Positions 15,067 through 61,447 of a stretch of 63,911 nt of DNA are shown one piece after another. This stretch comes from a bacterium. Lineage in GTDB: Bacteria > SZUA-182 > DTGQ01. Under the pieces are notes generated by a model. The model was not told where the DNA came from and made no database searches. It worked only from the letters and a program-made list of their open reading frames with translations. How positions within the stretch are numbered: position 1 is the stretch's first letter; every line of letters begins with the position of its first letter. Location of the stretch: assembly GCA_040752695.1 (NCBI GenBank), contig JBFMGO010000022.1:1-63911 (forward strand), written 5' to 3'. The translations under genes and the position numbers were made by a program.

Positions 15067-15822
15067 AGACTGATTTTCCTTTCTGTATGATGGTTATCGT
15101 CCAAGCTCTCCTTCATCCATTATAGGTGTTGTTCTATCTTATTGCAATCCCGAACTTTATTTTCAAAGAATTAAGGATTTTGACGCAGGAATTCCCTTTC
15201 GCTCATACCCTTGGCAAGAGGCACTACACCGGAAAGGGACTGCCGGAATCGATAACAAAACAAATTTTCTCCTTTTCAAATGCAGTAAAAAACTAAAAAA
15301 CGTCGATTATGTATTGTCAAAGTTAAAAATGCTTCTATTTGGTTAAGGGGAAGTAATAAGGCTACTTCACCATGGTTTGGTAATATAAATAATAACTAAT
15401 AAAATAATTATCTGTTTTATTGCATAGTTTTATAATGATATAGTAAAAATGTACGAAATAAAAGTATTTTTTGCGTTGAATTAAATAACTACTGAATGTG
15501 AAAATGACAGGAATTGGGTAAGATAAGGAAGAGATACTTTGTATAGTATAAGCATTTTATGTATCTTGCTGATCAGTGAGATAAGAACAGGAAATTGCAC
15601 ATCTGCAACGTATCAACCTACGTATTCACCACTCCCAGACAGGAACTGGTAAGAGTGGGGAATTCACCTCGAAGTAATGAAGTCATTTTCCGTCAGGAGA
15701 TAAAACCAGCAGGAAAACTAAAGGGTTTTTATAACATAAATGATAGATCAGAAAGAACAGGATAGAGACATAATTCTTAAAGATATATTCACAACGCCAG
15801 ATTATTGAGGGAAAGCAATCTT

Positions 15823-25944: not shown

Positions 25945-26309
25945 ATTTTTTTTTTGCCGGGTGGAGAGAGGAAGGGGTAAGAATGCGGCAGGCAGAAAAA
26001 GGTGTGGAGGGACGCTTTACGTGACTGCCATCGAGAATGAGAATTCGGGAGTCAGATGGGAATATGAGGTCGGCATCTTCAAGATAAAGTGGGTAAAAAG
26101 AGAGAGGATTAAGGATGCTTCCTCTTGTTCCTTTTTTGGAGGAAGCAAGCAGCCGAGAAGACTGCAAGTCAGGAGGAAAACCGCCTTCGATGATCGACGA
26201 CGGGTTGTGGATTTCTGTTTTACTCCGATTCCTGCTGGATTCTGGTTCCTGCTTTACCGTGAATCCTGCTTTATTCTGAATCCTGTTCCTTAAAAACAGA
26301 GCGGATGAG

Positions 26310-42901: not shown

Positions 42902-42903
42902 GT

Positions 42904-45689: not shown

Positions 45690-45799
45690 GGGTTGGATTT
45701 ATCGAAAGGGTAAAGAATTTGGACTTCGTAACTCCCCGGCGCCAGAAATGACCAAATTCCCTGGGTTGGATTTATCGAAAGGGTAAAGAATTTGGACTT
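45690..45799. repeat. Two identical 37-bp direct repeats separated by 36 bp
   Basis: GGGTTGGATTTATCGAAAGGGTAAAGAATTTGGACTT at 45690-45726 and 45763-45799. Confidence 0.9.
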
Positions 45800-46904
45800 A
45801 CCGGAATGGTAAAGAAAAGGATTTAATCTGAGGCAGACATTCCCCGATCTTCGCATCAAGTGCAATCGAAACCACCCGCACGGGACGGGAATAGTCCGGT
45901 AAAAATCCCAGAGTCAGAAGAGCCATTCTTTCCGATAGCCGAAAGAGGGGAAAAATACTCATGATCATTTTCTTTCCCTCCCTTTTCATGGCCGAAATAA
46001 AAAGCGCCAGGCAGGTACGCAGGTGAAAGGGCCTGGTCCAGACCTGCTCGATAACCACCGAGGGAATCAACTCCCCTCCCCGAATTGCAAGGTCCAGTAT
46101 TCTGACGATTCCGATTCTCTCACCTTTTCTCCTGATTTCAAATAAGCGAAAAAACCGGCTGAAATCCGCTCCAGGAGGGCAATATTGGCTGAATTCGTTT
46201 ATGATTTTCAGGTCATAGGCTTTCTCATTCAGGATATCCTCATAAAGACGCTGTCTTGAGAGGGGGATCTCTTCGACTTCACCGCTACCTTTACCTTGAT
46301 CATCACCGCCATCGTGATCAGGCGGCTTTTCATCCTTCCACTCTCTTTGAAGGAGCCTGAGCAGGAGCTCTTCATGGCGGTTCAAATACATTTTCTCCAG
46401 CATTTTTTTCGATTCGATGCTGGCCATGGCCACAAGAGGCTTCGAGATGACAGGATAGACCCCTTTAGATTTTATCCTGGCCGCATTCAGCATGGCCGAC
46501 TGTGCATCCACAATCCCAAGGACCAGATCATACTTTTTCATTCTTGCGGTTTCAACCATGTCCATGCACATTTGAACGACTCCTGTCAGTCTCAGTGCCT
46601 GACTCATACTGCTGGCAGTCTCCTCAACCACGGAAAACCAGCTTATCAGCACGACCCGAAGGGACCTTGAGAAAATTTCCGCTCTATATCCAAGGTTCAG
46701 ACATAAACAAACAGGCTCTTTGCGGTAATACGTCGCCAAACCGTAAAATTCCAGGCTCGACCCCTGAACGGCTTCCAGATATTCCGGAGAAAAGAAATCC
46801 AAAACCAGGGTCTTTTGATACATTTTATCCCAGACCGGTCTGGCCAGAGAGCTGAATTCTCTCATTGACCCCGTGAACTGTGCGGTATAGAATATTCTGC
46901 CCAT
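45798..46904 (-). CDS. Hypothetical protein, possibly tandem GNAT/NMT-like acyltransferase fold
   Basis: 368-aa ORF closing the minus operon; strand/helix pattern (GLATYYRKEPVCLC...RVVLISWFSV; RIGIVRIL...LGF) suggests GNAT. The ORF is likely real; the fold call is weak. Confidence 0.5.
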   Translation of the reverse strand: MGRIFYTAQFTGSMREFSSLARPVWDKMYQKTLVLDFFSPEYLEAVQGSSLEFYGLATYYRKEPVCLCLNLGYRAEIFSRSLRVVLISWFSVVEETASSMSQALRLTGVVQMCMDMVETARMKKYDLVLGIVDAQSAMLNAARIKSKGVYPVISKPLVAMASIESKKMLEKMYLNRHEELLLRLLQREWKDEKPPDHDGGDDQGKGSGEVEEIPLSRQRLYEDILNEKAYDLKIINEFSQYCPPGADFSRFFRLFEIRRKGERIGIVRILDLAIRGGELIPSVVIEQVWTRPFHLRTCLALFISAMKREGKKMIMSIFPLFRLSERMALLTLGFLPDYSRPVRVVSIALDAKIGECLPQIKSFSLPFR

Positions 46905-46916
46905 CGGCTTTTCCTC

Positions 46917-47600
46917 TCAGGTATCGAAACTTACTAAAACAGTTTCACCGGCATAGACCGTATCCCCAACCTCAACCTGGATTTTGACGGCATCCTGTTC
47001 GGGAAGAAAGAGATCCACCTGTGAGCCCATCCGAATAAGACCAAACTCTTCGCCCTTAGCCAGATATTCCCCTTCTGCAATACGGCAAATGATCCGGTTA
47101 ATCCAGGCATCTGCTATCTGGGTCACGGCCACCGTGCATCGTGTTCCCTGGATAACGATCGTATTTCTTTCGTTTCTTACGATATATTCCGAGTCCTGCT
47201 CGTACGGCTTCAGGTTAAAGAAAGAAGTAAAGCCGATCTTGAGCATGGTTATGTTTCGCGGAGCCCTCAAATAATGCTTTTTGATCACTCTTCCGGCAAT
47301 GGGGGACCGGTTCCGGTGGACACTGAAAGGAGATAAAAATATCCCGAATAGATACCCATCATGATCTTTAAACTCCTCAAGACCGATGATTTCATCCAGC
47401 CTGATGGCACTTTTCTTAATGGCCAGGGGAACCTGCCCCTTTAAAACTTTCTGAATATAGATGACTTTCCCATCCGCAGGGGCAACGATGGCATCCCCTT
47501 TAGGGATATCCCTTCGAGGATTTCTGAAGAAATAGAAAAACCTCCAAAAAAGGAAAAAGGCCAGATAGATTCCTCCCGCCAGGAGAAAAAGTCTCAGCAT
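46917..47600 (-). CDS. psd: Phosphatidylserine decarboxylase family proenzyme
   Basis: N-terminal TM, FFRNP, VAPADGKV, IFLSPFSVHRNRSP, RNER, VTQIA, FGLIRMGSQVD (G/S self-cleavage). Confidence 0.9.
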   Translation of the reverse strand: MLRLFLLAGGIYLAFFLFWRFFYFFRNPRRDIPKGDAIVAPADGKVIYIQKVLKGQVPLAIKKSAIRLDEIIGLEEFKDHDGYLFGIFLSPFSVHRNRSPIAGRVIKKHYLRAPRNITMLKIGFTSFFNLKPYEQDSEYIVRNERNTIVIQGTRCTVAVTQIADAWINRIICRIAEGEYLAKGEEFGLIRMGSQVDLFLPEQDAVKIQVEVGDTVYAGETVLVSFDT

Positions 47601-47651: not shown

Positions 47652-47903
47652 CTAATCAATACCGAAAGTATCAATACCGAAGCTCTTCTTGTGCTCCGTG
47701 AAGTTCCGGGCGAAAAACCCGGTTGTCTGCCGGAGTATCTTTTCATGCTTTTTGGCTGGCAAAAAGAACCTCAAGAGCCACAAACCAGCAAAAAGAACAT
47801 AGCACAGCATGACCAGGGTAAAAAGATAGAAGTCGCGCCCAAAAAAAACCAGAGACATCACGCGACCCCTCATAGTATCTATACCATTTGCTGGACGCAT
47901 CAT
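47652..47903 (-). CDS. Small single-TM hypothetical protein
   Basis: 83 aa; ATG abuts the upstream stop codon; one long hydrophobic helix. Confidence 0.5.
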   Translation of the reverse strand: MMRPANGIDTMRGRVMSLVFFGRDFYLFTLVMLCYVLFAGLWLLRFFLPAKKHEKILRQTTGFFARNFTEHKKSFGIDTFGID

Positions 47904-49013
47904 TTAAACCCTCTCGAATATTCCAGCCAGGTCAAAAGGGCGATAGCTCTGCTCCGCTACCGGGATTCCCGGCTGACAGGCAATCAACCCTGTAAGAGAA
48001 TCAAGCTCTATCACCAATGAGTAGACTGTCTGGGAGGTGCTCTTTGATCTTTCTGACAGCCTTTTCATGAATGCTGCCACATCGCTGACCTCTTGATTTT
48101 CGGGGTCATGGGCCCAATAATCTTCAAAGATCCTTTGCCGGGAATCGATGAATGGGTTTCTCCCCGCTCTTTTCCAGGAAGCCCTCCACAGATCCTTTGA
48201 GAAAAAATGATTGGCTGCATATAAAATATCTTTCTCTTCCAGGCGCTGGGTCCTGTAATCCAAAAGAGCAAGTTCCAGATGAACCGCCCGTGCTCGATTA
48301 GCTAAAAATACGTTGAATTCACCGCTTCTTTTTTCTTGAATCAAATGGCTTTGCAACTCCTCTAAAGATCCGGCCCGCTCCAGTGCCCGGCGAAACAAAA
48401 AAACCGCCGGCATGGCTTTCGGATCTGTTCTGGAACAATCGATTGAACTCTCACAAAAAAAGACACCTTTTTCCGAATAGGCGGTCAATACCCCGATAAA
48501 CCCTGGAAAGGTTATCGTAAAAAAGGCATGCCCGCCCTTTGGCCGGTAAACCGCGAACCTTATAAGTTTCTGGAAGATGGCGGCAAAGCCAAAATCCAGA
48601 TTTCTCCCGATCAGTATCCCTCTCTCCCTTGTCCTCCTCCCCGATAAGGCCACCAGCGAACAGGCAGCCACCTCAGGCACCAGATTCAGAAAATATTTCC
48701 TGATCATAGTCACAGGAAGACAGGAGGCGACCGTAGGCAGTAAATTCAAAAAATACACGGTTTCAAAGGGAATTTTACCTCCCACAGCAATTCCTTTCAT
48801 TTCCTGTACGTATTCATCGGGGAGGCAGGGAAGCATTTTTTCACCCAGATAACGAAGAATGAACCTTTTCAAGGAGGCAAATTTAACGATTCTCCTGAGT
48901 ACAATGTGCTCGATATCCTGTAATTCTTTTCTGAATGCCTGGCCATGCTGCAGGCCAATCTCATGATGGTTCCCGCTAAAATGATGAAGTGAAAAAGGGA
49001 CAGCAGGCTTCAT
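47904..49013 (-). CDS. Peptidase C45 / Ntn-hydrolase acyltransferase (AAT, acid-ceramidase-like)
   Basis: EIGLQHG, EMKGIA, autoproteolysis site A|CS, GRNLDF, FPGFIGVLT, ANHF, TVYS. Confidence 0.88.
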   Translation of the reverse strand: MKPAVPFSLHHFSGNHHEIGLQHGQAFRKELQDIEHIVLRRIVKFASLKRFILRYLGEKMLPCLPDEYVQEMKGIAVGGKIPFETVYFLNLLPTVASCLPVTMIRKYFLNLVPEVAACSLVALSGRRTRERGILIGRNLDFGFAAIFQKLIRFAVYRPKGGHAFFTITFPGFIGVLTAYSEKGVFFCESSIDCSRTDPKAMPAVFLFRRALERAGSLEELQSHLIQEKRSGEFNVFLANRARAVHLELALLDYRTQRLEEKDILYAANHFFSKDLWRASWKRAGRNPFIDSRQRIFEDYWAHDPENQEVSDVAAFMKRLSERSKSTSQTVYSLVIELDSLTGLIACQPGIPVAEQSYRPFDLAGIFERV

Positions 49014-49230: not shown

Positions 49231-50352
49231 TTACAGCATACCGCATTCAAGATAGGGGAACCTCTCTGGTTCCAGTTTGTCAACAACCGATCCGGATTTA
49301 TTCCAGTCTACAAGGTAAATCCTGCTCCTGTATACGAGGTGTGGAATCTTTCGAAGGACATTCCTGAGGGGATTTTTCTCGTGGAGGCCGATCAGAAAAA
49401 ATGGATAATCATGCAGGCTGGCTGAAAATTGGTTTAAAAAGCTGGTAAACAAATAAGGATCGTTATCCCTTACCGCCCAGAAGGAAAGCGTAAAAAATTT
49501 CAAGATTGTTCCCGGCCTGACGAGGGCAGGGTATCCCAGGCTGGCCAGAAGTGACGAGAGGGGAGAACAGAATTTGAGGATTCCCTTATATCCCTGGATG
49601 ATATATTGTTTATACTTCTTCTGGTCCCAGGCTGCTCCGGCTGCCAGGATCTCGCCTCCTTGACCGTACAGGATAAAAAAATCTTCATAGGTTAAGCCGG
49701 GATATTTTTCATGGGTACAGTCTTCGCTTATAAGCTCTTCCCTCTCGATAACGGGGAAAAATTGATACTTTTTCCCTTGATAATTCAAGAACTTGACCAG
49801 CGCCGGAATATCGGTTTTTTCCGTCCTTTTAAAGTGGAAGGGATGCTTTTGCTTATCCTTTCTCTTTGTCTTGATGGTATATACCTCATAGAGCCCGAAA
49901 GGCTCGTATGCGGGCATACATGCTCTTTTTTTCTCAAGAAGTTTTTGCGCATAAAGGTTTTCTTCCAGAATGGTAGTAAGGAACAGCGGAACATCCTGAT
50001 GAAGGGAATGGAGAAAATGATAACCCCTCGAAAGGAGGGCATAGGTTTTTTTATATTCTTTTCTCTCCCGCAAGGCAAAAAGATACCCTGCTTTTTCTTC
50101 TTTTCCATTGATGTACAGCTTTCGCACTCCGCAGGCGCCAAATCCTACGATTTTATTCTTTTGGGAGTCTTTGCATACTACAATGCTTACTTCATCGCCC
50201 TCTTTTTTCAAAGAAGCATAGGCATTTGGTCTTCTTGTATAAAGGATCGATATTCTCCCCTTGAAATCGTTTTGTTCGAGGATTTCGAGGATCTGCTCTT
50301 TATCTTCGGGCTGGCCAAGCCCAAAGGAAAATCTTCTGGTTGATTGACTCAT
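49231..50352 (-). CDS. GNAT-like acyltransferase
   Basis: YTRRPN, IVGFG...RKLYING...AGYLFALR, TTILEEN..A; second half ILAAGAAWDQ. ATG 50352 has a GGAG SD; the ORF track starts at 50439. Confidence 0.7.
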   Translation of the reverse strand: MSQSTRRFSFGLGQPEDKEQILEILEQNDFKGRISILYTRRPNAYASLKKEGDEVSIVVCKDSQKNKIVGFGACGVRKLYINGKEEKAGYLFALRERKEYKKTYALLSRGYHFLHSLHQDVPLFLTTILEENLYAQKLLEKKRACMPAYEPFGLYEVYTIKTKRKDKQKHPFHFKRTEKTDIPALVKFLNYQGKKYQFFPVIEREELISEDCTHEKYPGLTYEDFFILYGQGGEILAAGAAWDQKKYKQYIIQGYKGILKFCSPLSSLLASLGYPALVRPGTILKFFTLSFWAVRDNDPYLFTSFLNQFSASLHDYPFFLIGLHEKNPLRNVLRKIPHLVYRSRIYLVDWNKSGSVVDKLEPERFPYLECGML

Positions 50353-50439
50353 CACACAACGCTCCCTTTCAAAAGATCTGCCGAAGACTGCTTTCCTGTT
50401 AAAGGAACCTGCCGGGACCGGTGGACATACAGAGGCCAT

Positions 50440-51531
50440 TCATATGATGCCCCTTTTTGCCCGGCATCCCTCTTTGGTTACAAATCCCAGATGCGGTGAG
50501 CGATACATCTTTTCCCAGACCGTCCTTAACCTTTCGGTTCTTATGTTGCCGAAAGACTTCCGTGAGCATTCACATGGCGTGATATCACCATAAGGGGAGA
50601 TGTAAAGCCTGGTGGCACCTGCCGTACATCCAAAACTCACATCACAGAAGAATGGGTAATAAAATATGCCAAACCGATACTTATTATTCCTGTTTACTTT
50701 TTTGACCAGGGCATAAAATTCGTCATCGAGGAAGTCATGGTAAAAAGCCATCTTTTCAGGATCATATTCTTTACTCAAAAATACTTCGCAAACCCCTAAA
50801 GTTTTGCAGAGTTCAAAGATGCCGGATAAATCCTCAACCGTTGTCTTTGGCGTTATGGTAGTAGACACGCCAAGAAGCATCCCTTTCTTTTTGGCCTGGA
50901 TGATCCCCTGGACTGCTTTTTCAAACAGCCCTTTTTGTCTTCTGAAGGCATTGTGCTTTTCCGCCTCTGGAAAATCGATGCTGACCATGATTCTCTTCAA
51001 ACCTGCCTTTTTCAGGCCGGAGGCATTTTCTGTCAGTAAACTTCCATTGGTAAAGAGAAGGAGATTGACCTTTGCCGTATCAGTCAACTGGATTATTTCC
51101 ATGAGGTCACGGTTCATGAGCGGTTCTCCACCAAGCAAATTTATGGTGGAAACGCCAAGTTCCTGACATTCGGTAATGCATCTTAAAATCTCTTCCCGGC
51201 TCAAGGGAATTTTATCCTGCCTGATACTTTTCAGAATGCAATGTTCGCAATGACTGTTACATAGATCGGTAACAGCTAAATTAACCCCAAAGGGAATCCG
51301 GACATTGAGGAGCGATTCAAACGTCATTCTCATTAAAAAGTTCCTGTACTGATCACTCAACAGCGCTGGCATAAGTAACGAATAAACCGGTTTTCCCTTT
51401 TCAAATCCTATTATTTTCTTATGCCCTAATTGTTTTTCATACATTTCATCAATAAACGTATTATAAAAACTCAATCCATTCCCTACGACCGACAGTTTTT
51501 TTCGTGCGCTGCTCCACAGTTGAGTCCACAT
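50440..51531 (-). CDS. Radical SAM protein with twitch/SPASM domain
   Basis: TDLCNSHCEHC, GGEPL, FTNG, VSID; GCTAG-x5-ISPYGDITPC...FGNIR. Confidence 0.9.
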   Translation of the reverse strand: MWTQLWSSARKKLSVVGNGLSFYNTFIDEMYEKQLGHKKIIGFEKGKPVYSLLMPALLSDQYRNFLMRMTFESLLNVRIPFGVNLAVTDLCNSHCEHCILKSIRQDKIPLSREEILRCITECQELGVSTINLLGGEPLMNRDLMEIIQLTDTAKVNLLLFTNGSLLTENASGLKKAGLKRIMVSIDFPEAEKHNAFRRQKGLFEKAVQGIIQAKKKGMLLGVSTTITPKTTVEDLSGIFELCKTLGVCEVFLSKEYDPEKMAFYHDFLDDEFYALVKKVNRNNKYRFGIFYYPFFCDVSFGCTAGATRLYISPYGDITPCECSRKSFGNIRTERLRTVWEKMYRSPHLGFVTKEGCRAKRGII

Positions 51532-51583: not shown

Positions 51584-52888
51584 TCAAGAATATTCTTTTA
51601 TCCGGTTGGCAATACATCCTTGCTGGTGAATGCCATCTTTATTCCGGTAAGCAGTACCGCATCTTATGGCTCTTTGCTCATCCTGAAACCTGGAATACAT
51701 GAACTGCTCGACTTCAATCAGTACCAGACAATCATCTCCTTTGCTCCGGATAAAGCCATGGATAGATCTGAGTAATTTGGCCCTTTTCCCTTTATAGGCG
51801 CAAGTGAATAAAAGATACAATATGGTCAGGTAACTTATCCAGCCCGGCAGGCCCGTCCTTGTATAGCTGGCTAACCTTTTGTAGAGTAAAGACCTGTCTA
51901 CAAAATCGTCAAGAGGATACAGACCACCGTTTTCGATCAGGATAGCTGTCATGACACCGCAATCCGGGTGGATCTCCATACTCAGCGGCCTGAATCTCGG
52001 TATCGGCCAGAAAAATTCGGAGCTTAATACGGATGATAGTCCAGGATACGACTCCAGCGATCTGAGGGTTTCTTCCCGGTTCACTATTTTATCCTCTTCA
52101 ATCTCGGTGTATCCAGTAGGGAAATATGGCTGAAGGATTACCATATTGAGATGGGGCCTAAATTGAAGGCAAAATTGAATTAATAGCCCTAACTCTTTGA
52201 GATTATATCGGGTAACGGTAATCACAGCCGATATTCTCAATCCAGCCTTTTGGCAGTTTTTGAAGGCTTCGATTTTTTCCTCGATAAACGTGTTGTTTCT
52301 ATGCTTTTTGTGAGTAGCGGTGTCGATGCTGTCCAGTTGTATCCCTATGCCGCTTAAGCCATTCTTTTTCAAGGCCCTTGCCAGACCCGGATCCTTGGCC
52401 AGTAAATATCCGTTAGAAGCCATGTTGACCATTAATCCGAGTTTTTTTAATCCCCGGATGATCCGGAGTAACTGCCTGTGCAAAGTGGGCTCCCCACCGG
52501 TAAGAGTCACTTCGTAGCCCCTCTCTTTTTTGATGGTCTTACCGATCTCGATAATCTCATCAAGCGGTTTGTAGGTTTTTGGTCCACTTTTATTGGAACT
52601 GCAAAAGCAAAATTTGCATTGAAAATTACAGTCATTGGTTATTTCGATGAGGTTGATATGGCGATAGCCGATAAAATCAGCCGGTTCATTGAAGTCATAG
52701 TTTGCTTTAGCTCTGATTTTCCTGAATAGTTCCGCATCGGTAGAGACGAGTTGAGTAAACTTTTTTTGAGGGCAATCGACTATAAAATAAACTGCATTAC
52801 CCTTTTGCTCGTATCGCGCCGGATGGGTCAGGCAGCAATCCGGGCAGAAGGAGGTAGTTTTATTAATAACGTGAAAGTCTTCATTCAC
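51584..52888 (-). CDS. MJ0619/Tes (tetraether synthase)-family radical SAM protein
   Basis: TTSFCPDC-x20-CP N-terminus; EITNDCNFQCKFC; GGEPTLH; HPDCG; FM-x4-D-x2-R-x2-RC-x3-Y-x3-DG-x5-C-x2-N C-terminus. Confidence 0.8.
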   Translation of the reverse strand: MNEDFHVINKTTSFCPDCCLTHPARYEQKGNAVYFIVDCPQKKFTQLVSTDAELFRKIRAKANYDFNEPADFIGYRHINLIEITNDCNFQCKFCFCSSNKSGPKTYKPLDEIIEIGKTIKKERGYEVTLTGGEPTLHRQLLRIIRGLKKLGLMVNMASNGYLLAKDPGLARALKKNGLSGIGIQLDSIDTATHKKHRNNTFIEEKIEAFKNCQKAGLRISAVITVTRYNLKELGLLIQFCLQFRPHLNMVILQPYFPTGYTEIEEDKIVNREETLRSLESYPGLSSVLSSEFFWPIPRFRPLSMEIHPDCGVMTAILIENGGLYPLDDFVDRSLLYKRLASYTRTGLPGWISYLTILYLLFTCAYKGKRAKLLRSIHGFIRSKGDDCLVLIEVEQFMYSRFQDEQRAIRCGTAYRNKDGIHQQGCIANRIKEYS

Positions 52889-52889
52889 G

Positions 52890-52965
52890 GTTTTTATCCC
52901 TCATGGCTTTTATCCACAAACCTTTTGTCCACATGCCTTTTATTCGAATGCCTTTTATCCGCACG
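52890..52965. repeat. 15-nt tandem repeat (about 5 units) with DnaA-box-like cores
   Basis: GTTTTTATCCCTCATG / GCTTTTATCCACAAA / CCTTTTGTCCACATG / CCTTTTATTCGAATG / CCTTTTATCCGCACG. Confidence 0.8.
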
Positions 52966-54817
52966 GCCTTGATCCTTCCTGGTAGTATTGTCCAACAAAT
53001 ACCGTATCCCAATCTAACTCCGTTCTGAGATAGCTTGTTTTTATATCACCGGCCTTTTTGCCTCTCTTTACGAAATAATCACGATACGTTCGATCCGCGG
53101 TGCCTTTCTTGATTAAAAAAAGCCTGAGCGGCTTCAACTGAGAGAGATTTCTCGCATGCTGATAATGAAAATTCTTAGCCAGTTCACGTTCGAACATCTC
53201 TATGATTCGCTCATACTCATAAAGCCTCCCCGGTAATGGCTCGATAAACAGGCTGTAGTGAAAGTACGGGCCATGTCTTACGGGAGCCAGCAGCCTGAAA
53301 CCAAAACCAACATGAAGAGTTTCTTCTAAAAGCGCGAAAGCCCTTGCAACATGTGATTCATTGATCTTCTCCCCTACGGTATCCGAAATAATGTCCCCTT
53401 TTGAAAGGAAATCGAAACAGGGGATCTTCCCTGTAAAGCCGGTTACCTTTACAAGATCGCAAAGTTTGTATCTAAAGAGACCACCACCGGTTGTAATAAC
53501 AACATTGTAGACATGATTCTTTTCCAATTCCCATGCATTTCGTATCAGACCTTTTGATTGCTGATCTATAAACTCAAAAAAATGTGACCGGTACGCCAGA
53601 GCTTTTTTTCCGGCTTTTCCAAAGGGGATCGATACGATTCCCTCGGTGGCTAATAACCCCTTGCCTTCCCTCTTGACCCCTGGGAAATAATCATCCAGTT
53701 TTTTGGCTGCTGCCGAAGAGTTACCATCGGTCCAGCAGCTTATCACCTTGAGCTTAGGCCATATTTTTACCGGAGCCTTTCGGTCTGAGATGTTAATTTG
53801 GGAAAGTTCCTGCGCTCTTTTAGGGTCCGGTTTCAATTTCCTTTCGAGTTTTGACCTCAACTCCCTGTCGATTTTGATTGTTTCATCGATAGTGCCAGCC
53901 TTTATATCACAGACGATCCGGCTGTAATACCTGCCGAGCTTATCCATCAATATCATCAAAAAAGTGGGATTCCAGACGGATATCAGTCTTAGATTCCGCT
54001 CTGCCACAAGAAACAGGACGGTAACGTATTCAAACCCCTGCATATCATGAATCCTGCTTACCTCAGAAGGTACGGCAAAGAGAATTTGCGCGAATAACCT
54101 CTTGACCGGATCGAGGTATTCCGCATCCTCGGCAAACCCTATCCTTATGCAGCTATCTGCTGCCTTAGGTATGCCACTATCCGGGCCGTTACCGTTACGT
54201 ATACCTCTATCTATGCTGTCACCTATGCCTCCATCCGTGGCATCCTTTACACACGCATCATCAGTGCCTTCCCCAATGCGTTCATCTGTGCAATCACTGA
54301 ATTGCGTGTTTGGACTGATCGACCAGTAATGCTTACCGAAAAGCACTTGGTAATTAAACAGGAACATGTTGGCTATCCATACATCAATGGCTTTTCGAAA
54401 CTGTTTTTGTAAGCTTCTGGTATAAGGAATAAGTTTTGATCCACCTGAGGAACCGCCTGTCGGTTCAAGGAGAAGAACCTCATCTTCGGTTAAGATTTTT
54501 CTTTCCCCTCTCCTGATATCAAGGATATATCCGGTATAATCTTCATAATCGCTGAGTGGAAGCTCTTTGTATGTTTCGAGCATGGATAAAGGGCCATCAC
54601 TGAGCATATCACTGAACGCATGGGCAAGACCATAGCTCGTACGGCTATTCTCAGTAATGATTTTTTTGATCACTTTCACCTGTGTGGCTTTCAGTGTACG
54701 ATTGCCTATACGATACCTGCACCATTCAGGAAACGAGGCGGCAAACCACAGGAAATTGGCCAGAGGTACCCTCAAGATCATGCTACGAATCATGATGCGA
54801 TTCATGTTGCGATTCAT
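52955..54817 (-). CDS. GH3-family acyl-adenylate/amide synthetase
   Basis: EPTGGSSGGSKLIP P-loop, ISVWNPTF, GLLATEG, FFEF, TTGGGLFRYKLCD, DTVGEK. Confidence 0.88.
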   Translation of the reverse strand: MNRNMNRIMIRSMILRVPLANFLWFAASFPEWCRYRIGNRTLKATQVKVIKKIITENSRTSYGLAHAFSDMLSDGPLSMLETYKELPLSDYEDYTGYILDIRRGERKILTEDEVLLLEPTGGSSGGSKLIPYTRSLQKQFRKAIDVWIANMFLFNYQVLFGKHYWSISPNTQFSDCTDERIGEGTDDACVKDATDGGIGDSIDRGIRNGNGPDSGIPKAADSCIRIGFAEDAEYLDPVKRLFAQILFAVPSEVSRIHDMQGFEYVTVLFLVAERNLRLISVWNPTFLMILMDKLGRYYSRIVCDIKAGTIDETIKIDRELRSKLERKLKPDPKRAQELSQINISDRKAPVKIWPKLKVISCWTDGNSSAAAKKLDDYFPGVKREGKGLLATEGIVSIPFGKAGKKALAYRSHFFEFIDQQSKGLIRNAWELEKNHVYNVVITTGGGLFRYKLCDLVKVTGFTGKIPCFDFLSKGDIISDTVGEKINESHVARAFALLEETLHVGFGFRLLAPVRHGPYFHYSLFIEPLPGRLYEYERIIEMFERELAKNFHYQHARNLSQLKPLRLFLIKKGTADRTYRDYFVKRGKKAGDIKTSYLRTELDWDTVFVGQYYQEGSRPCG

Positions 54818-54818
54818 G

Positions 54819-55571
54819 CTATGATATCCATTCCACCGATACGGACCTGATTACCCTCTCCATGAGATCACTTTTGAAGTTTTCCTTCTTCAAACTGGCT
54901 ATGCATACCAGTTCATCTCCCAGATAATAACGAGGATTTTTTTTCAAAAAATAACTGATATGGGGGTTACTCTGCCGGCCTTGCCTGATTGCAGCCATAT
55001 GCGGCTTCAGGTAATCACTTTGTCCATCGGTGAGGACCAGCCCGCTCTGTGAATCATAGCGGCTTGCGAATTTTATCGAGCAGATATGGTCCATCAATGC
55101 CTTTACGTTTTCCGGAGTCTGCCGGTCATAAACGGGGTAAAATTCCTTATAGTAAAGAGACAAAAACCGGTAGGTTCTGAATCCTTTTGAAATCAGCAGC
55201 CAATATAACTCATGGTGAGGAAATTTCTGGTTTAAATACAGAACAAAATGCCCAAAGGCACCCGTCAGCAGGTTATCTCGCCAGTTCTCCTGAGCTACGA
55301 GAGTATCACCACTGAACAGGAATTTGCACTGCTTTCCATCAAATGTCGTGTCAATAAGCTGTAGAGAAGAATATCCCTTTATCGATTTATCCTCATCACC
55401 AATCAGTATGCACCAATCTTTTTCCTTAAGGTCATGAACGAAATTTTCCATCCTGGCCTGATCAAAATACTGGGTATGGAGGAGAAACATCTTTTCTATT
55501 TCCGAACGGCTTATTTTATTTACCCTTTTCAGATACACCGCCAGGGTATCCTTTAATGCTTCTTCAGCCAT
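54819..55571 (-). CDS. Conserved hypothetical protein, probable GNAT-like fold
   Basis: DLKEKD, IKGYS, FSGDTLV, YWLLISKGFRTYRFL, NPHI-x-YFLKKNP-x-Y-x2-GDELVC; stop is 1 nt from the GH3 start. Confidence 0.65.
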   Translation of the reverse strand: MAEEALKDTLAVYLKRVNKISRSEIEKMFLLHTQYFDQARMENFVHDLKEKDWCILIGDEDKSIKGYSSLQLIDTTFDGKQCKFLFSGDTLVAQENWRDNLLTGAFGHFVLYLNQKFPHHELYWLLISKGFRTYRFLSLYYKEFYPVYDRQTPENVKALMDHICSIKFASRYDSQSGLVLTDGQSDYLKPHMAAIRQGRQSNPHISYFLKKNPRYYLGDELVCIASLKKENFKSDLMERVIRSVSVEWIS

Positions 55572-55707: not shown

Positions 55708-57051
55708 TCACTCTTCACTCTTCTCCAGTTTCCAATCACTCTCCATATAATCAGCGCCGAATTTATCATGACTCCTGGCATATTGCCGGTAGCCAAAATT
55801 GGCCAAAAAAACGAATTCTAAAAAGCATCGCGAAGAAAAAATTCGCCTGGCAATTTGGGGATACTGATAAGATGCAGTCCATATCCATCGGTGTCCCTCT
55901 TCCAATTCATTTACACTCATTTTGCGAGGGCGAAAAACTACATGCTGAGCATCATAAAGAGTCCAGTTCTCGGTCAGGATTCGGCCTTCATTTTTAAGCC
56001 TTTTAAAAAATGGCGTACCTGGGAATGGTGTACAGATAGTATAGCGAGGCAAATCTATTGAAGCCTTCTTGACAAATTCCCATGTCCTTTGAAAGCAATC
56101 TTTATCGTCTTCATCGAGACCATGAACGAAACAGCCCATGATAGCTATTCCCCGGTCATGTAATTTTCTCACTAGGGTATAATACGTGTCTACATTGTTG
56201 AATCTCTTTTGCATCTTGTTATTGCTCGATTGCGACAGTGACTCAAAGCCGATGAGTAACCCCTTGCAGCCGCTTTCTGCCATGACATCCATCAATTCCT
56301 CATGCTCCACCAGGCGGGTCGTAGCTAAGCCCGTCCACCTCTTTTTTAAAGGGATCATGGCCTGGCAAAGCTCGACTGCATAGCGGGGATTTTCAATCGG
56401 ACTCGGATCGACAAAAGTCATATACCTGCCCGGCATGAGCTTTATCTCCGAACAGACATCTTTGATGGGCCGGTGTTCATATTTGTTCCGGCAGGTTACG
56501 GGGGTAACGCAGAATTCACACTTATTGGGACAGCCGAAAACGGCCTGGATACTATTGAGACTGATAAATGGCTTGTTTTTCAGGTATCTCCTGTCAGGAT
56601 GGGGAATAGTGCTAAAATCGATACATCCGGGAGGATAATAGAATTCCTTCAGGTTATTGTGCGTAAAATCCCGCAGTAATTGGGGCCAGGTCTGGTAAGC
56701 ATGCCCTATCACTACCGCGTCGACATGCTCTTTGGCCTCATGGGGCATAAGCGTGGCATGAGGGCCGCCCATAACTACCGTGATGCCTTTTGATCTAAAG
56801 TAGTCTGCATAAGCATATGCTCTCAGGGATGATCCGGTAATTGCCGTTAAACCAATAATATCCGCGGATATATCCTCCCTTTTAATATGCTCTACGCTTT
56901 CATCATATATTTCTACCCTGCCTTTTAATTCTCCTGGCACAAGAGAGGCAAGCGTCACCAGGTTTAAGGGTGCATACCGGAGAAAGAGGGAAAAAGCACC
57001 TGTTTTATACCGGTACATACCGGTACGGGGTGATATGAGAACGATTTTCAT
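55708..57051 (-). CDS. B12-binding-domain radical SAM protein 4
   Basis: MKIVLISP, APLNLVTLASLVP, VVMGGPHAT, GCPNKCEFC, IGFES, TPFPGT; SD AAGGAG. Confidence 0.92.
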   Translation of the reverse strand: MKIVLISPRTGMYRYKTGAFSLFLRYAPLNLVTLASLVPGELKGRVEIYDESVEHIKREDISADIIGLTAITGSSLRAYAYADYFRSKGITVVMGGPHATLMPHEAKEHVDAVVIGHAYQTWPQLLRDFTHNNLKEFYYPPGCIDFSTIPHPDRRYLKNKPFISLNSIQAVFGCPNKCEFCVTPVTCRNKYEHRPIKDVCSEIKLMPGRYMTFVDPSPIENPRYAVELCQAMIPLKKRWTGLATTRLVEHEELMDVMAESGCKGLLIGFESLSQSSNNKMQKRFNNVDTYYTLVRKLHDRGIAIMGCFVHGLDEDDKDCFQRTWEFVKKASIDLPRYTICTPFPGTPFFKRLKNEGRILTENWTLYDAQHVVFRPRKMSVNELEEGHRWIWTASYQYPQIARRIFSSRCFLEFVFLANFGYRQYARSHDKFGADYMESDWKLEKSEE

Positions 57052-57693: not shown

Positions 57694-58005
57694 ATGCCCG
57701 CGATATCGGAAAAAATTTCTCAGTTCATCGATCATTTGGAAGAATCTGGAGGAGATTCTGAATCAAAGTTAAAAAAAATTTTAGAAAATGAGTATCGACG
57801 CAGGCTAAACAGATATCACCTCGTAGATAGACTTTTAAGAAAAAAATATAAAATGAGTTTTGAAGAGTTTAGAGACCAGGAACTACTGAAAAAATTAAAT
57901 TACTCTTTAGATGCTGAATCTGACTTTTGCGATTGGGAAATGGCCATAACCGGAATTGAATACTTGCAAAAAGATTTATCGGAATTACTGGAAAGAGACG
58001 CATGA
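57694..58005 (+). CDS. Small helical protein, putative antitoxin
   Basis: SD AAGGAGG; 103 aa; KYKMSFEEF...DFCDWEMA; ATGA overlap with the next gene. Confidence 0.6.
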   Translation: MPAISEKISQFIDHLEESGGDSESKLKKILENEYRRRLNRYHLVDRLLRKKYKMSFEEFRDQELLKKLNYSLDAESDFCDWEMAITGIEYLQKDLSELLERDA

Positions 58006-58355
58006 GGGTTGAAGATCTGGAAATAGAAGCGATAGAGGCCACGAAGAAATTCCCATTCCTGAAGAGAGTAGAAGTGGTTGATAAACACCCGTGTGCTATC
58101 AAGCTCAAACTTTATATTGAAGAAAATTTCTACGTCCAGGCCTACTGCAATACAGCAACAAAAACAACTAATTTTGTTGCCATAGTTGGCAATCAAAGGA
58201 TTTTTGGAAGAGATTGCATTCGGGAAAGTTGGCACTTGCATCCATTTCACGATCCTGATACTCATGATTTCTCTTCAGAAGGAAGAAGAAAGATCAGCTT
58301 GACTGATTTTTTAGAAGAATTGCAGGAAATTATTGAAAAAGAAGAATTGCTCTGA
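58002..58355 (+). CDS. Putative toxin (DUF6516/TumE-like)
   Basis: 117 aa; RIFGRD-x4-WHLHP-x5-H His cluster; translationally coupled to the upstream gene. Confidence 0.5.
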   Translation: MRVEDLEIEAIEATKKFPFLKRVEVVDKHPCAIKLKLYIEENFYVQAYCNTATKTTNFVAIVGNQRIFGRDCIRESWHLHPFHDPDTHDFSSEGRRKISLTDFLEELQEIIEKEELL

Positions 58356-58618: not shown

Positions 58619-61447
58619 TTACCTGAAGCTTCTCATCAATGAATTGATAAAGCAACCATCGTCATCACCTTTATCGTTATCGGTGTTAGTCACTGACACA
58701 GATTTTGTCTTGCCTTGATAGTCTGTGTCATTAGAGGACGCGGTCAGATTAATTGTATAAGTAATATCACCATCATCACTCTTGTCATTGACTCCTTTTA
58801 CCGTTACGGTTTGTGCAGTATTCCAGTTTGCAGCAGTAAAGGTAAGGCTGGCAGGTGTTGCCGTCCCTTCGCCTGTATCAGAACTGCTCACAGCTATGGT
58901 TACCTCAGCAGTTGGCTCTGTAGCCAGTTTAACCGTGAAGGTATCTTCGTCGCCTGTTTCCGATGTTTCCAATCCGCTTTCTTGACTGACAATTATGCCT
59001 GCCCCACCAGTAGGTCCGTCATTATCCTCATTGATTACTGTCACATCGTTTGGATCTATAGCGGCGTATTTTGTATCGGTGGACGTTGGTGCTGTCAGGA
59101 TGATTTGATACTGGACATTACCATCATCTACGGTATCATCTACACCAGTTACCGTTACGGTTTGTGCAGTATTCCAGTTTGCAGCAGTAAAGATAAGGTT
59201 TTCTATCGCTACTGTCCCTTCGGTTTCATCAGAAGAATCTACTGGAATGGTGACTTCTGCCGTCGGCTCACTGTCTAACACTACGGTGAAAGTAGCTGTG
59301 CCTCCAGCTTCGGTGGTATTTCCACTGATCGCACTTACCGTTATACCTGCGGTATCGTCGTTGGTATTGGTCACGGCTACGTTATTTGGATCCATGCCAC
59401 TGTAATCTGTACCAGTGGTCACTACGGCTCCCAGGTCGATCGTGTAAGCTACATTACCATCATCAACGTTATCATCCTGTCCGGTTACGGTTACGGTTTG
59501 AGGAGTATCCCAGTCGGTGGTAGTGAATACAACCTTATTCGGATCTACTGTCCCCTCAGTCAGATCATTACTGGTCACTGGTATGGTGACAGTAGCATCC
59601 GGCTCGCTGTCTAACACTACGGTGAAAGTAGCCGTGCCTCCAGCTTCGGTGGTATTTCCACTGATCGCACTTACCGTTATATGCGGAGTATCGTCATCAT
59701 CGTTGATTACGTCTATGTCGTTCGGATCAAAGCCGCTATAATTTGGATCTGTGGACACTGCAGCTCCCAGGATGATCTTGTATGCTACAGAGCCATCCTG
59801 GTCAGCGTCATCGACACCGGTTACGGTTACTGTCTGGGCTACATTCCAGTCGGTAGTCGTAAATATAACCTTATTCGGATCTACTGTCCCCTCGCTGAGA
59901 TCGTTACTGCTCACTGGTATGGTGACAGTATCTGAAGGCAAGGTTTTTAATACAACCGTGAAGGTAGCTGTGCCTGCATTATGCTCTTTTGTATGCCCAC
60001 TGATTCCACTTACCGTTACGCCTATTTCATCATTGTCCGTATTGGTTACGTCTAAATTAACAGGACTGAGGCTGCTGTAATTTGTATCGTTGGAAACGGG
60101 AGTTCCTAAGGTAATGTGATAGCCTACATCACCATCAACTACATTGTCATCCTGACCAGTCACGGTTACGATTTGATTCTGATTCCAGTTTGTAGTAGTA
60201 AATTCAACTTTGTTCGGATCTACTGTCCCCTCCGTTGTATCATCACTGCTCACTGCTATCGTGACGGTATCCGTCGGTGCTGTTTTTAACGAAACCGTGA
60301 AGATAGCCGTAGTTCCGTCTTCGCTTGTATTTCCACTGATAGTACTTATGTTTAAACCTGGAATTTCGTTATCGGTGTTGGTCACGGTTACATCGTTAGG
60401 ATCAATTGCGGCGTATTTTGCATCATTAGACGTTGCTTGTGCCAGGATGATCGTATACGTTTTATCACCATCGTCATCAGTATCATCTTGTCCGGTTACG
60501 GTTACGGTTTGAGCAGTATTCCAGTTATCAACCGTAAATACTACTTTGTTCGGATCTACTGTCCCCTCGGTTGTATCATCACTGCTCACTGGTATCGTGA
60601 CAGTATTCGTTGGCTTGCTGTCCAATACGACCGTAAAAGTAGCTGTGTCTCCATCCTCTGTTGTAGATCCGGAGATTGTACCTACGGTAACCCCTGCATC
60701 GTCATCATCTATATTGGTAACGTCAACATCGTTGGGGTCCATGATACCGTATGCTGAATCAGTAGAATTCATACCGAGGATAATCTTGTATGATACATCA
60801 TCATCATCGACCTGATCGTCTTGACCTGTTACGGTTACCGTCTTGGCAGTATGCCAGTCGGTAGAAGTAAATTCAACTTTGTTAGGATCTACCGTCCCTT
60901 CGTCTTCATTATTACTGCTCACTGGTATCGTGACAGTTGCCGACGGAGCGCTCTTTAACTTAACCGTGAAGGTAGCAGTATTTCCCGTCTCGGTCGTATC
61001 TCCACTGATTGGACTTACTATGATATCCGGTGTATCGTCATCGATGTTGGTTACGGTTACATCGTTAGGGTCATAATTGTTGTAAGCAGTATCATTTGAC
61101 ACTGCCTGATAGAGAATAACCTGGTAGGTTACATCGCCATCCTGGTCAGCATCATCGACACCGGTTACGGTTAACGTTCTTGCGCTCCAATCACCAGGAG
61201 CAAATACAACACTGTTAGGATCTACCGTCCCTTCAGTTGGATCAGAACAGGTCACATTTATCGTAACCGTATCCGTTGGCTCCTGCGATAAGGTAACAGT
61301 AAATGTAGCTGTACCTGTCTGATATTCTTCGGTAGGTCCGCTGATTGCACTTACTGAAATACTTGCAGCCGTCGCGTAGCTTTGGAAACCTAAAAACAGA
61401 GCAAAAAAGAGAAAAAACCCTATGGTTACTACTTTTAATGACTTCAT
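58619..61447 (-). CDS. Secreted surface protein with 8 Calx-beta/Ig-like repeats and a C-terminal GCFI motif
   Basis: Signal peptide; 8 repeats of about 110 aa (T-x-E-x3-ATFTV-x-L...W-x3-QTVTVTG-x-DD-x3-DG); ends DDDGCFINSLMRSFR; SD GGAGG. Confidence 0.88.
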   Translation of the reverse strand: MKSLKVVTIGFFLFFALFLGFQSYATAASISVSAISGPTEEYQTGTATFTVTLSQEPTDTVTINVTCSDPTEGTVDPNSVVFAPGDWSARTLTVTGVDDADQDGDVTYQVILYQAVSNDTAYNNYDPNDVTVTNIDDDTPDIIVSPISGDTTETGNTATFTVKLKSAPSATVTIPVSSNNEDEGTVDPNKVEFTSTDWHTAKTVTVTGQDDQVDDDDVSYKIILGMNSTDSAYGIMDPNDVDVTNIDDDDAGVTVGTISGSTTEDGDTATFTVVLDSKPTNTVTIPVSSDDTTEGTVDPNKVVFTVDNWNTAQTVTVTGQDDTDDDGDKTYTIILAQATSNDAKYAAIDPNDVTVTNTDNEIPGLNISTISGNTSEDGTTAIFTVSLKTAPTDTVTIAVSSDDTTEGTVDPNKVEFTTTNWNQNQIVTVTGQDDNVVDGDVGYHITLGTPVSNDTNYSSLSPVNLDVTNTDNDEIGVTVSGISGHTKEHNAGTATFTVVLKTLPSDTVTIPVSSNDLSEGTVDPNKVIFTTTDWNVAQTVTVTGVDDADQDGSVAYKIILGAAVSTDPNYSGFDPNDIDVINDDDDTPHITVSAISGNTTEAGGTATFTVVLDSEPDATVTIPVTSNDLTEGTVDPNKVVFTTTDWDTPQTVTVTGQDDNVDDGNVAYTIDLGAVVTTGTDYSGMDPNNVAVTNTNDDTAGITVSAISGNTTEAGGTATFTVVLDSEPTAEVTIPVDSSDETEGTVAIENLIFTAANWNTAQTVTVTGVDDTVDDGNVQYQIILTAPTSTDTKYAAIDPNDVTVINEDNDGPTGGAGIIVSQESGLETSETGDEDTFTVKLATEPTAEVTIAVSSSDTGEGTATPASLTFTAANWNTAQTVTVKGVNDKSDDGDITYTINLTASSNDTDYQGKTKSVSVTNTDNDKGDDDGCFINSLMRSFR

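Follow-up and report, generated by a model that had tools for sequence, protein, structure and literature searches.

Among enzymes that join two unactivated carbons of lipid tails, Tes/GDGT-MAS (MJ0619) is, to our knowledge, the only one understood at the structural level. Branched tetraether lipids are widely used as climate proxies, and the bacterial enzymes that make membrane-spanning and branched tetraether lipids are only partly known. According to the accessible part of the structural work, GDGT-MAS carries a rubredoxin-like motif (C9X2C12X20C33X2H36), an N-terminal cluster ligated by C73, C77, C80, and a His, and a C-terminal cluster with a labile Met439; Met439 and Tyr459 are described there as completely conserved across 1000 archaeal homologues, and the M439A variant keeps robust activity (PMC9433317). 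Excerpts of this and a second source provide a precedent for a substrate radical parked on a cluster sulfide, with a second hydrogen abstraction completing the C-C bond (PMC9433317, PMC13459092). Here we describe a gene on the bacterial contig JBFMGO010000022.1 (assembly GCA_040752695.1), of which the whole stretch of 63,911 nucleotides was analyzed and is called the window. This gene (positions 51584..52888, minus strand) encodes a short Tes-like radical S-adenosylmethionine (SAM) enzyme, hereafter the target. We propose that the target is a member of a distinct, uncharacterized family that, together with another radical SAM enzyme from the adjacent gene (the partner), carries out radical tailoring of the alkyl chains of an amino-lipid, and we give this reading a probability of roughly 0.45. 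We are confident of the fold, the conserved ligand set, the monophyly of the family, the linkage to the partner, and the location on an accessory island; we infer the lipid substrate, the C-C coupling, and the identities of the metals.

The coordinates given in the initial annotation were right, and the gene lies on the minus strand, where a single ORF (open reading frame) of 434 aa begins with a GTG start preceded by GAGG about 10 nt upstream; the plus strand of the same interval contains many stops. All motifs named in that annotation were present in the minus-strand translation, namely C15-P-D-C18 followed by C19, H22, and C39-P-Q-K42, one single CX3CX2C motif (C87/C91/C94), HPDCG at residues 307 to 311, and the tail F396-M397 ... 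R409-C410 ... Y414 ... C425 ... N428. With this CX3CX2C motif and a score of 96.9 bits on Pfam Radical_SAM (PF04055; cut-off, 29.5), the target falls within the radical SAM superfamily. Its AlphaFold2 (AF2) model, built on 76 family sequences, reached a pLDDT of 94.3 and a pTM of 0.93. The best Foldseek matches of the model were 7TOM and 7TOL (GDGT-MAS; E = 5.7e-30, template modeling [TM] score of 0.81 normalized to the query), and the next fold was that of MoaA (TM, 0.44 to 0.49). In VIA, GDGT-MAS had a Z score of 38.1 with 408 of the 434 residues aligned (root mean square deviation, 3.0 Å), followed by MoaA (Z = 21.1), and SkfB/SuiB reached a Z of 19 against 38 for GDGT-MAS. The best sequence match in the PDB was likewise GDGT-MAS (E = 5.8e-26), with SkfB next (1.9e-10). 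Among solved structures, GDGT-MAS was by far the nearest to the target over the entire chain. As modeled, the fold and domain order of the target are those of GDGT-MAS minus its N-terminal cluster domain: both have an N-terminal ribbon, a radical SAM partial barrel, and a C-terminal helical and cluster domain. In contrast to GDGT-MAS/Tes (7TOL, 7TOM; NCBIfam NF045702), to which it is about 24% identical, the target is about 60 to 90 residues shorter, bacterial, and located on an accessory island.

Conservation was counted in an alignment of 76 full-length members of the target's family. C15, C18, H22, C39, C87, C91, C94, C310, and C410 were invariant (76/76) and C425 was present in 75 of the 76 members, so that the conserved set consists of exactly nine Cys and one His (H22); given this invariance, the motifs listed above are more than chance. 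The N-terminal four-stranded ribbon (residues 5 to 49; positions 52742..52876, minus strand), with strands at residues 5-15, 20-29, 32-37, and 44-49 in the AF2 model, is predicted from the model, conservation, and alignment with Tes to hold one mononuclear Cys2-His-Cys metal site formed by C15, C18, H22, and C39. It had been noted before that Lys takes the place of the His of the Tes CPxH motif, with C19 and H22 as possible substitute ligands. K42 did fall in that column when the target was aligned with Tes-scoring proteins, and in the family His was not among the eight commonest residues at position 42 (G in 31 members, K in 12). Of the two candidates, H22 was invariant, whereas the most frequent residues at position 19 were G (17) and R (12), with Cys outside the top eight; this makes H22, and not C19, the likely fourth ligand of the ribbon site. 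The family thus has CX2CX3H...C in place of the rubredoxin-like CX2C-X20-CX2H of Tes, and the sequences suggest that the ribbon-site His has likely been relocated (CxxCxxxH...C) and not lost. Pfam PF23545 (Zn_ribbon_HMPTM) scored 24.5 bits on the target, below its cut-off of 27, and a precomputed Pfam table assigns PF23545.2 to the target and two close relatives, not to most family members.

The invariant motif C87-x3-C91-x2-C94 (52607..52630, minus strand) would bind the SAM-cleaving [4Fe-4S] cluster. Between C39 and C87, the 76 members had no conserved Cys, and the CPxDCGLC..H auxiliary-cluster segment was missing in the alignment with Tes-scoring proteins, as had been read from the absence of CGLC; the three Cys in CX3CX2C and the His of the N-terminal auxiliary [4Fe-4S] cluster of Tes are lacking, and the target is predicted to have no such cluster. 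One Tes-scoring protein of the representative library (P0236; 584 bits on the Tes model) also had no Cys in this segment. From its sequence, the N-terminal cluster appears dispensable in at least this one canonical Tes lineage, and its loss is therefore not unique to the short Tes-like family. The C-terminal domain (residues ~295 to 430; positions 51599..52006, minus strand) comprises HPDC (C310), amphipathic helices at 332 to 381, C410, and C425, and from the Tes-column alignment, conservation, model, and hydropathy it is predicted to carry a three-Cys auxiliary [4Fe-4S] site. C310, M397, C410, Y414, and C425 aligned with the Tes columns of the HxxCG Cys, the HFMD Met, the RxxxC Cys, the HY Tyr, and the PFC Cys, respectively, and the claim that the C-terminal cluster ligands are kept was borne out, all three Cys standing in the Tes columns. 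C310, C410, and C425 would thus ligate a C-terminal auxiliary [4Fe-4S] cluster with its fourth position open or labile (M397 in the target). Unlike the Met439 and Tyr459 columns in archaeal GDGT-MAS, these two positions were not conserved in the family: Met was found at 397 in 31 of the 76 members, and Tyr at 414 was rare and outside the eight commonest residues. The hydrophobicity of the C-terminal helices, expressed as the median of the maximum 15-residue value over roughly defined segments, was similar in the family (1.24) and Tes (1.26) and lower in TrsS (0.59). The metal sites of GDGT-MAS itself had been described in the initial annotation in agreement with the accessible part of the structural study (PMC9433317).

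The target scored 136.6 bits on the NCBIfam equivalog model of Tes (NF045702; cut-off, 450) and 133.2 bits on that of the radical SAM (seleno)protein TrsS (NF045646; cut-off, 490), and four other family members had no Tes or TrsS match at E ≤ 1e-45. In a genome-wide search with the Tes model, the target reached 118.8 bits, while the controls Methanocaldococcus jannaschii, Sulfolobus acidocaldarius, and Methanosarcina acetivorans passed the cut-off. The first description of the gene as Tes/GDGT-MAS (MJ0619)-like holds for the closest structure and the closest PDB sequence; it does not extend to membership of Tes by the curated model, on which the score is far below the cut-off, and the family forms a clade of its own. 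A word-indexed search returned only 14 close relatives (415 to 454 aa), followed by archaeal Tes at an E value of about 1e-26. A hidden Markov model (HMM) search of 1.84 billion representatives yielded about 100 family rows at 215 to 628 bits, with full-length members at 297 bits or higher and Tes-like proteins from about 205 bits, so the family comprises about 100 clusters at 50% identity. In a motif survey of 268 proteins, family rows showed one CX3CX2C, CxxCxxxH...CP, and HPDC; most Tes-like rows had CPxDCGLC plus the radical SAM motif, and most had CxxC...CPxH. The CxxCxxxH...CP pattern occurred in none of 16 Tes-labeled and none of 7 TrsS-labeled rows (labels by NCBIfam cut-offs; the TrsS rows comprise 5 above the cut-off and 2 just under it).

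In a quick maximum-likelihood tree of 101 rows, the family formed one clade (37 of 37 rows; SH-like approximate likelihood ratio test [SH-aLRT], 99), and Tes, TrsS, and 31 unassigned rows fell in a separate clade (SH-aLRT, 99). A tree constrained to unite the family with Tes had a log-likelihood 2.9 above that of the free tree (P = 0.53 in the approximately unbiased [AU] test), and one uniting it with TrsS a log-likelihood 9.1 above it (P = 0.59 in the AU test). As neither constraint was rejected, the deep placement is not robust and neither Tes nor TrsS is fixed as the sister group. A tree had also been proposed as a check in the initial annotation; it placed the family as a monophyletic group within the Tes/TrsS superfamily, with the AU tests compatible with a place beside either Tes or TrsS. 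On the strength of these comparisons, we claim only that the family is monophyletic, inside the Tes/TrsS superfamily, and outside both curated equivalogs.

The family was seen almost only in metagenome assemblies. The target was not found in 40 other genomes sampled around its own genome and was likewise not found in the 19 further genomes of its phylum, for which the collection has 20 species genomes in all; in none of these 20 genomes was Tes found above the cut-off, while the archaeal controls passed. A scan of genome contigs, made with a six-sequence alignment and patterns from close relatives only, so that absence is not shown, gave 60 loci with radical SAM-core matches only and no full-length member; many of these loci came from Brocadiaceae. 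A metagenome scan with a generic GGEPT pattern recovered at least five family members among the 80 loci listed. Searching with a 76-row profile, we found in the "longer" class only intein-containing Tes and one MoaA-named protein; an 816-aa fusion protein described below (P0124) was not recovered, so fused forms may be undercounted. As far as the accessible text goes, surveys of bacterial Tes homologues used a threshold of E < 1e-50 to archaeal Tes (PMC8941075, PMC13159169, PMC11868695). At about E = 1e-26 to GDGT-MAS, the family would fall short of this threshold, so that the published surveys would miss it. Literature searches (on MJ0619, GDGT-MAS, Tes in connection with branched glycerol dialkyl glycerol tetraether [brGDGT], and radical SAM together with GH3; outside subscription journals and supplements) turned up no description of a short Tes-like family in which the His is relocated and a partner radical SAM enzyme is present.

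The gene 53 nt downstream of the target (50440..51531, minus strand) encodes the partner, a 363-aa radical SAM protein with a SPASM/twitch-like C terminus (Pfam Radical_SAM, 78.4 bits; SPASM, 32.5 bits). Our statements on gene context rest on six loci, the window and five others (L070 to L074). In L070, L071, and L074, an orthologue of the partner (35 to 38% identity) lay directly upstream of the target homologue, and in L072 a radical SAM gene of a different type lay directly downstream; in L073 the contig is cut within the target homologue, leaving its upstream side unseen. A second radical SAM gene thus adjoined the family member in five of the six loci (the window, L070, L071, L072, and L074), a feature by which the family differs from GDGT-MAS/Tes. 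The C-terminal half of the fusion protein P0124 is a family member, and its N-terminal half was matched over the full length of the L072-type partner (31% identity over 373 aa, E = 1.5e-66). The adjacency in five of six loci and the one fusion are good evidence, at the level of gene order and sequence, that the working unit of the family is a module of two radical SAM enzymes. The initial annotation had overlooked this partner, along with four B12-binding radical SAM genes, the GH3/GNAT module, and the accessory nature of the island.

The target and the partner lie in a minus-strand operon of ten codirectional ORFs (from 57051 to 45798, with gaps of 0 to 218 nt), in the order B12-binding radical SAM enzyme, 250-aa GNAT-like protein, GH3, target, SPASM partner, 402-aa GNAT-like protein, C45 protein, 83-aa ORF, phosphatidylserine (PS)-decarboxylase-like protein, and 368-aa protein. 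The first gene (55708..57051, minus strand; 447 aa) has Pfam B12-binding, Radical_SAM, and DUF4070 domains, and a 39% identical homologue stands beside the target homologue in L072. The 250-aa protein (54819..55571, minus strand) is GNAT-like by language-model features only (Atlas feature score of 0.98 to clusters auto-named GNAT); its structural rows (TM, 0.90) were mostly unnamed clusters, with one of three auto-named GNAT, and it had no Pfam family. A homologue with 37% identity occurs in L072, and BLASTP gave no similarity to a GNAT-aminotransferase fusion in L071. The GH3-family acyl-acid amido synthetase (52955..54817, minus strand; 620 aa) has the N, M, and C domains of GH3 (Pfam; 149.1, 58.6, and 41.9 bits, respectively; cut-off, 23.6).

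Downstream of the partner, the 402-aa protein (49231..50439, minus strand) is a tandem GNAT-like protein by Atlas features (0.98) and structure (TM of 0.88 to GNAT-annotated clusters), had no Pfam or NCBIfam match, and has a homologue in L072. The following genes, all on the minus strand, encode a C45-family autoproteolytic acyltransferase/hydrolase (47904..49013; 369 aa; NF040521, 151.8 bits with a cut-off of 85; Pfam AAT, 36.4 bits), an 83-aa ORF with one hydrophobic stretch that abuts the C45 gene and is uncertain as a gene (47652..47903; no Pfam match), a PS-decarboxylase-like protein (46917..47600; 227 aa; Pfam PS_Dcarbxylase, 152.2 bits with a cut-off of 22), and a 368-aa protein of no recognized family (45798..46904; no Pfam or NCBIfam match). 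For the proteins of the operon and island that have no family, no credible match emerged from Pfam searches at E up to 5 or from NCBIfam searches at E up to 10.

Three tandem B12-binding radical SAM genes on the plus strand, identified by Pfam (41570-42901, ORF 42646-44220, and 44272-45594), converge on the operon. In L072 and L074, the target homologue has beside it a homologue of the first of these genes (50 and 44% identity, respectively). Around the target homologue, L072 contains two B12-binding radical SAM genes, a radical SAM gene, homologues of the 402-aa and 250-aa proteins, and GH3 (in the order B12-radical SAM, target, radical SAM, B12-radical SAM, 402-type, 250-type, GH3), and L074 contains B12-radical SAM, SPASM, and target. 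From 15.8 to 41.2 kb, the window, with two giant polyunsaturated fatty acid (PUFA)-synthase-like genes and the four genes that follow them, was syntenic with two same-genus genomes (57 to 87% aa identity). Synteny ended at about 41.2 kb, and beyond 41.3 kb nothing in the window had a counterpart in these two genomes; GH3 was not found in five relatives, and the GC content dropped from about 0.50-0.55 to 0.43-0.45 in the island. Given the end of synteny, the drop in GC content, and the absence in relatives, we are confident that the block is an accessory island, and it was probably acquired horizontally.

The initial annotation had called the operon lipid flavored, which is supported by the PS-decarboxylase-like gene, in a tight codirectional operon with the target, and by a GH3 enzyme of the family of OlsH. 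According to the accessible part of the report on OlsH, this GH3 enzyme uses a fatty acid, ornithine, and ATP to produce N-acyl ornithine, and the authors propose different N-acyl amino acids as the products of further GH3s in bacteria; OlsH was the only biochemically characterized bacterial GH3 enzyme found in the literature (PMC12493201). The neighboring GH3 shares the three-domain architecture with OlsH, and the L072 homologue matched the OlsH model (NF052613) weakly (69 bits; cut-off, 620), whereas the operon contains no OlsI-type alpha/beta hydrolase and no OlsG. Among the other loci, L073 has a START-domain neighbor, and the GNAT-aminotransferase fusion just upstream in L071 (its GNAT part being of the Acetyltransf_5 type by a weak Pfam match below the cut-off) is accompanied by an ABC ATPase. 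Two further hints of a lipid are the amphipathic C-terminal helices of the family, with a hydrophobicity like that of Tes, and a same-order relative in which radical SAM genes of the Tes/TrsS clade share a cluster with FabF and FabG genes, described below. Taken together, GH3, the two GNAT-like proteins, the C45 protein, the PS-decarboxylase-like protein, and the four B12-binding radical SAM enzymes could serve to assemble an N-acyl amino acid or amino-lipid and to tailor it.

By analogy with GDGT-MAS, we propose that the island makes a lipid and that the target forms a C-C bond on one of its unactivated alkyl chains. In this scheme, the 5'-deoxyadenosyl radical would take a hydrogen from an unactivated alkyl carbon of the lipid chain, a sulfide of the C-terminal cluster would keep the resulting substrate radical until a second hydrogen abstraction, and a C-C bond (a cross-link or a ring) would then be formed; the partner might supply the second radical step or electrons. 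We put a lipid substrate of the target at about even odds and regard C-C coupling as plausible by analogy only; membrane-spanning or brGDGT-type products are a minority reading. In the accessible text on Mss of Thermotoga and Thermoanaerobacter, similar chemistry is proposed for this other bacterial radical SAM enzyme, namely, the coupling of lipid tails at unactivated alkyl carbons (PMC13159169, PMC13459092), a likeness that we take from the published description and not from sequence. The island also combines the same three radical SAM classes (Tes-like, SPASM-type, and B12-binding) as are described, in the portions available, for Tes, GMGT synthase (Gms), and GrsA/B and Gmm (PMC11186832, PMC13459092), a likeness of domain classes and not of compared sequences; the partner is shorter (363 aa) and has only three or four C-terminal Cys.

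Several observations weigh against an amino-lipid as the substrate. GH3 enzymes conjugate non-lipid acids too. The GH3 of the window had no NCBIfam match, including none to OlsH, and the PS-decarboxylase-like protein stayed below every NCBIfam PS decarboxylase cut-off (best, 146.4 bits versus 230). GH3 was present in two and B12-binding radical SAM genes in three of the six loci, and L071 had neither within 10 kb. The complete conservation of Met and Tyr in archaeal GDGT-MAS has no parallel in the family (Met in 31/76 members, Tyr rare), and location on an accessory island speaks against a core membrane role. Moreover, the combination of B12-binding and SPASM radical SAM enzymes, GNATs, and a C45 Ntn-hydrolase would also fit a peptide or small-molecule natural-product cluster.

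According to this last alternative, the island is a cluster similar to those for ribosomally synthesized and posttranslationally modified peptides (RiPPs) or for small molecules, and the target and partner act on a peptide or a metabolite derived from amino acids. SPASM radical SAM enzymes and B12-dependent radical SAM C-methyltransferases are characteristic of RiPP pathways; among common tailoring enzymes are GNATs, a C45 Ntn-hydrolase, and an adenylating amide ligase, and a low-GC, strain-specific island is typical of secondary metabolism. Weak NCBIfam matches of the island enzymes did include ApyD, WgkB, StsB, and other peptide maturases, but every one of these was far below its cut-off. 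A candidate precursor was found neither in the operon gaps nor in the 1.5-kb upstream region, the only small ORF being the 83-aa hydrophobic one, and the Pfam and NCBIfam scans showed no leader-binding domain, protease-exporter, or lanthipeptide-type gene. The closest fold over the whole chain, moreover, is that of a lipid enzyme and not that of SkfB/SuiB (Z of 38 versus 19). We consider a peptide or small-molecule substrate rather unlikely, at perhaps one chance in four.

A further alternative, in line with the inference of the initial annotation, is a true Tes, a membrane-spanning-lipid synthase that couples two acyl or alkyl chains tail-to-tail at their ends to give diabolic-acid or brGDGT-type lipids. 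The whole-chain fold match and the retained C-terminal cluster Cys agree with this function, and the target itself has Met and Tyr in the Met439 and Tyr459 columns. The tree with the family as sister of Tes was not rejected, and the missing N-terminal cluster may be dispensable, as P0236 indicates. Four B12-binding radical SAM genes could provide methyl branches or rings in the manner of the archaeal Gmm and Grs enzymes described in the accessible part of one source (PMC13459092). Bacterial homologues of this family were said in the initial annotation to have no proven function, which agrees with the available parts of two reports, where bacterial Tes homologues remain untested, being proposed for brGDGT synthesis and never confirmed (PMC8941075, PMC11868695). 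Against such a function stand the score of 136.6 bits with a cut-off of 450, a sister relationship to TrsS that was equally unrejected, and the lack of conservation of Met and Tyr in the family. A gene that is absent from 19 other genomes of the phylum and lies on an accessory island is unlike a core membrane trait, and the Pfam and NCBIfam scans showed no genes for ether-lipid or glycerolipid assembly in the island. In addition, Mss, the bacterial enzyme for which coupling is confirmed, is a member of another family that, as far as the accessible text shows, is only a remote relation of Tes (PMC13159169). We therefore regard Tes function of the target as improbable.

A more far-reaching version of the amino-lipid reading would make the island a bacterial counterpart of the archaeal tetraether toolkit, in which GH3 and the GNATs build an amino-lipid, the target and partner weld its tails into a macrocyclic or membrane-spanning product, and the B12-binding radical SAM enzymes add methyl branches or rings. 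We give this little more than one chance in ten; if true, bacteria would have a new class of bolaform lipid, and C(sp3)-C(sp3) coupling a new route that uses two enzymes.

Finally, the target might work like TrsS or another member of the Tes/TrsS superfamily on a substrate other than a lipid, for example a cofactor or a metabolite that contains selenium or sulfur; a literature search showed no paper on the function of TrsS. The two belong to the same superfamily, the target scored nearly as high on the TrsS as on the Tes model (133.2 versus 136.6 bits), the tree uniting the family with TrsS was not rejected and had the higher likelihood, and the Tes-specific insert before HxxCG is missing from the family and TrsS alike. 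On the other hand, the target's score was far under the TrsS cut-off of 490, and TrsS rows keep CPxDCGLC and mostly CPxH, plus a Cys-rich stretch (CC pair) after HxxC, whereas the family lacks both the CPxDCGLC segment and the CC-pair stretch and has more hydrophobic C-terminal helices. Selenium genes were not seen in the island in the Pfam and NCBIfam scans, and such a function seems quite improbable, at a tenth or so. The old annotation of MJ0619 as a pterin methyltransferase, echoed in the source name "7,8-dihydro-6-hydroxymethylpterin dimethyltransferase" of two family members, is hardly credible for the target, as the Pfam and NCBIfam scans showed no pterin or methanopterin genes in the island and the available part of the structural study judges that annotation incorrect after the structure and lipid activity became known (PMC9433317).

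Tailoring of amino-lipid chains by the target and partner thus remains our preferred reading. A separate Tes-fold family with a simpler predicted cofactor set, a probably relocated His ligand, and a second radical SAM partner would serve as a natural experiment to learn which of the metal sites are required for coupling, and the two-gene module is small enough for expression and assay. The link to GH3 would connect radical chemistry on lipid tails with the recently discovered GH3 route to amino-lipids.

A further cluster was seen in a relative of the same order (L152 = G007:C59:9000-26000), where two FabF-like, two FabG, and two radical SAM genes of the Tes/TrsS clade (471 and 460 aa; 236 to 275 bits, below both cut-offs) form one codirectional cluster with genes for a hexapeptide acetyltransferase-like protein, MoaA-like and SPASM-like radical SAM enzymes, NifS, and a B12-binding radical SAM enzyme. 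This is a fatty-acid-synthase-linked multi-radical-SAM cluster and recalls proposed ladderane-type clusters.

In the window, the intergenic leader between GH3 and the target (52889..52962, minus strand) consists of degenerate 15-nt tandem repeats of the GGATAAAAGG type (TRF: period 15, 2.5 copies at 52907-52943; about five copies by eye). The 66-nt spacer, running into the end of GH3, is thus a repeat array and may be regulatory or protein binding. A promoter scan found 22 candidates compared to a mean of 20.1 in shuffled sequences, no better than chance. The second of the three plus-strand B12-binding radical SAM ORFs (42646-44220) overlaps the preceding gene by 256 nt, and its Pfam domains are offset by about 85 residues compared to its paralogues; from this offset and the overlap, the real start of the gene is probably near 42.9 kb.

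Outside the island, the two PUFA-synthase/polyketide-synthase-like ORFs (3379 and 2347 aa; 15805-33353, plus strand) contain an enoyl-reductase-like NMO domain and KS, AT, ACP, KR, and DH domains. In genomes of the same genus and the same family, both ORFs are conserved (up to 87% identity over the matched segments), and so are the four genes that follow them, which encode a phosphodiesterase, an alpha/beta hydrolase, an 830-aa protein of no assigned function, and a 3-keto-disaccharide-hydrolase-like protein. In about 2.4 kb at the end of the window (61448-63911; GC content, 0.40), all ORFs were 114 aa or shorter, Rfam gave no family at gathering score, and there were no repeats of note. At the island's upstream edge, two ORFs of 103 and 117 aa (57694-58355, plus strand), without a Pfam match, overlap by 4 nt in a toxin-antitoxin-like layout. 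Between these ORFs and the 2.4-kb end stretch, the minus strand (58619-61447) encodes a secreted-looking protein of 942 aa, with weak Pfam matches that were all below the cut-off, which is made up of about ten near-identical repeats of about 85 to 90 aa (TATFTV ... TEGTVDPN ... VTVTG.DD) and has a short Cys-containing tail.

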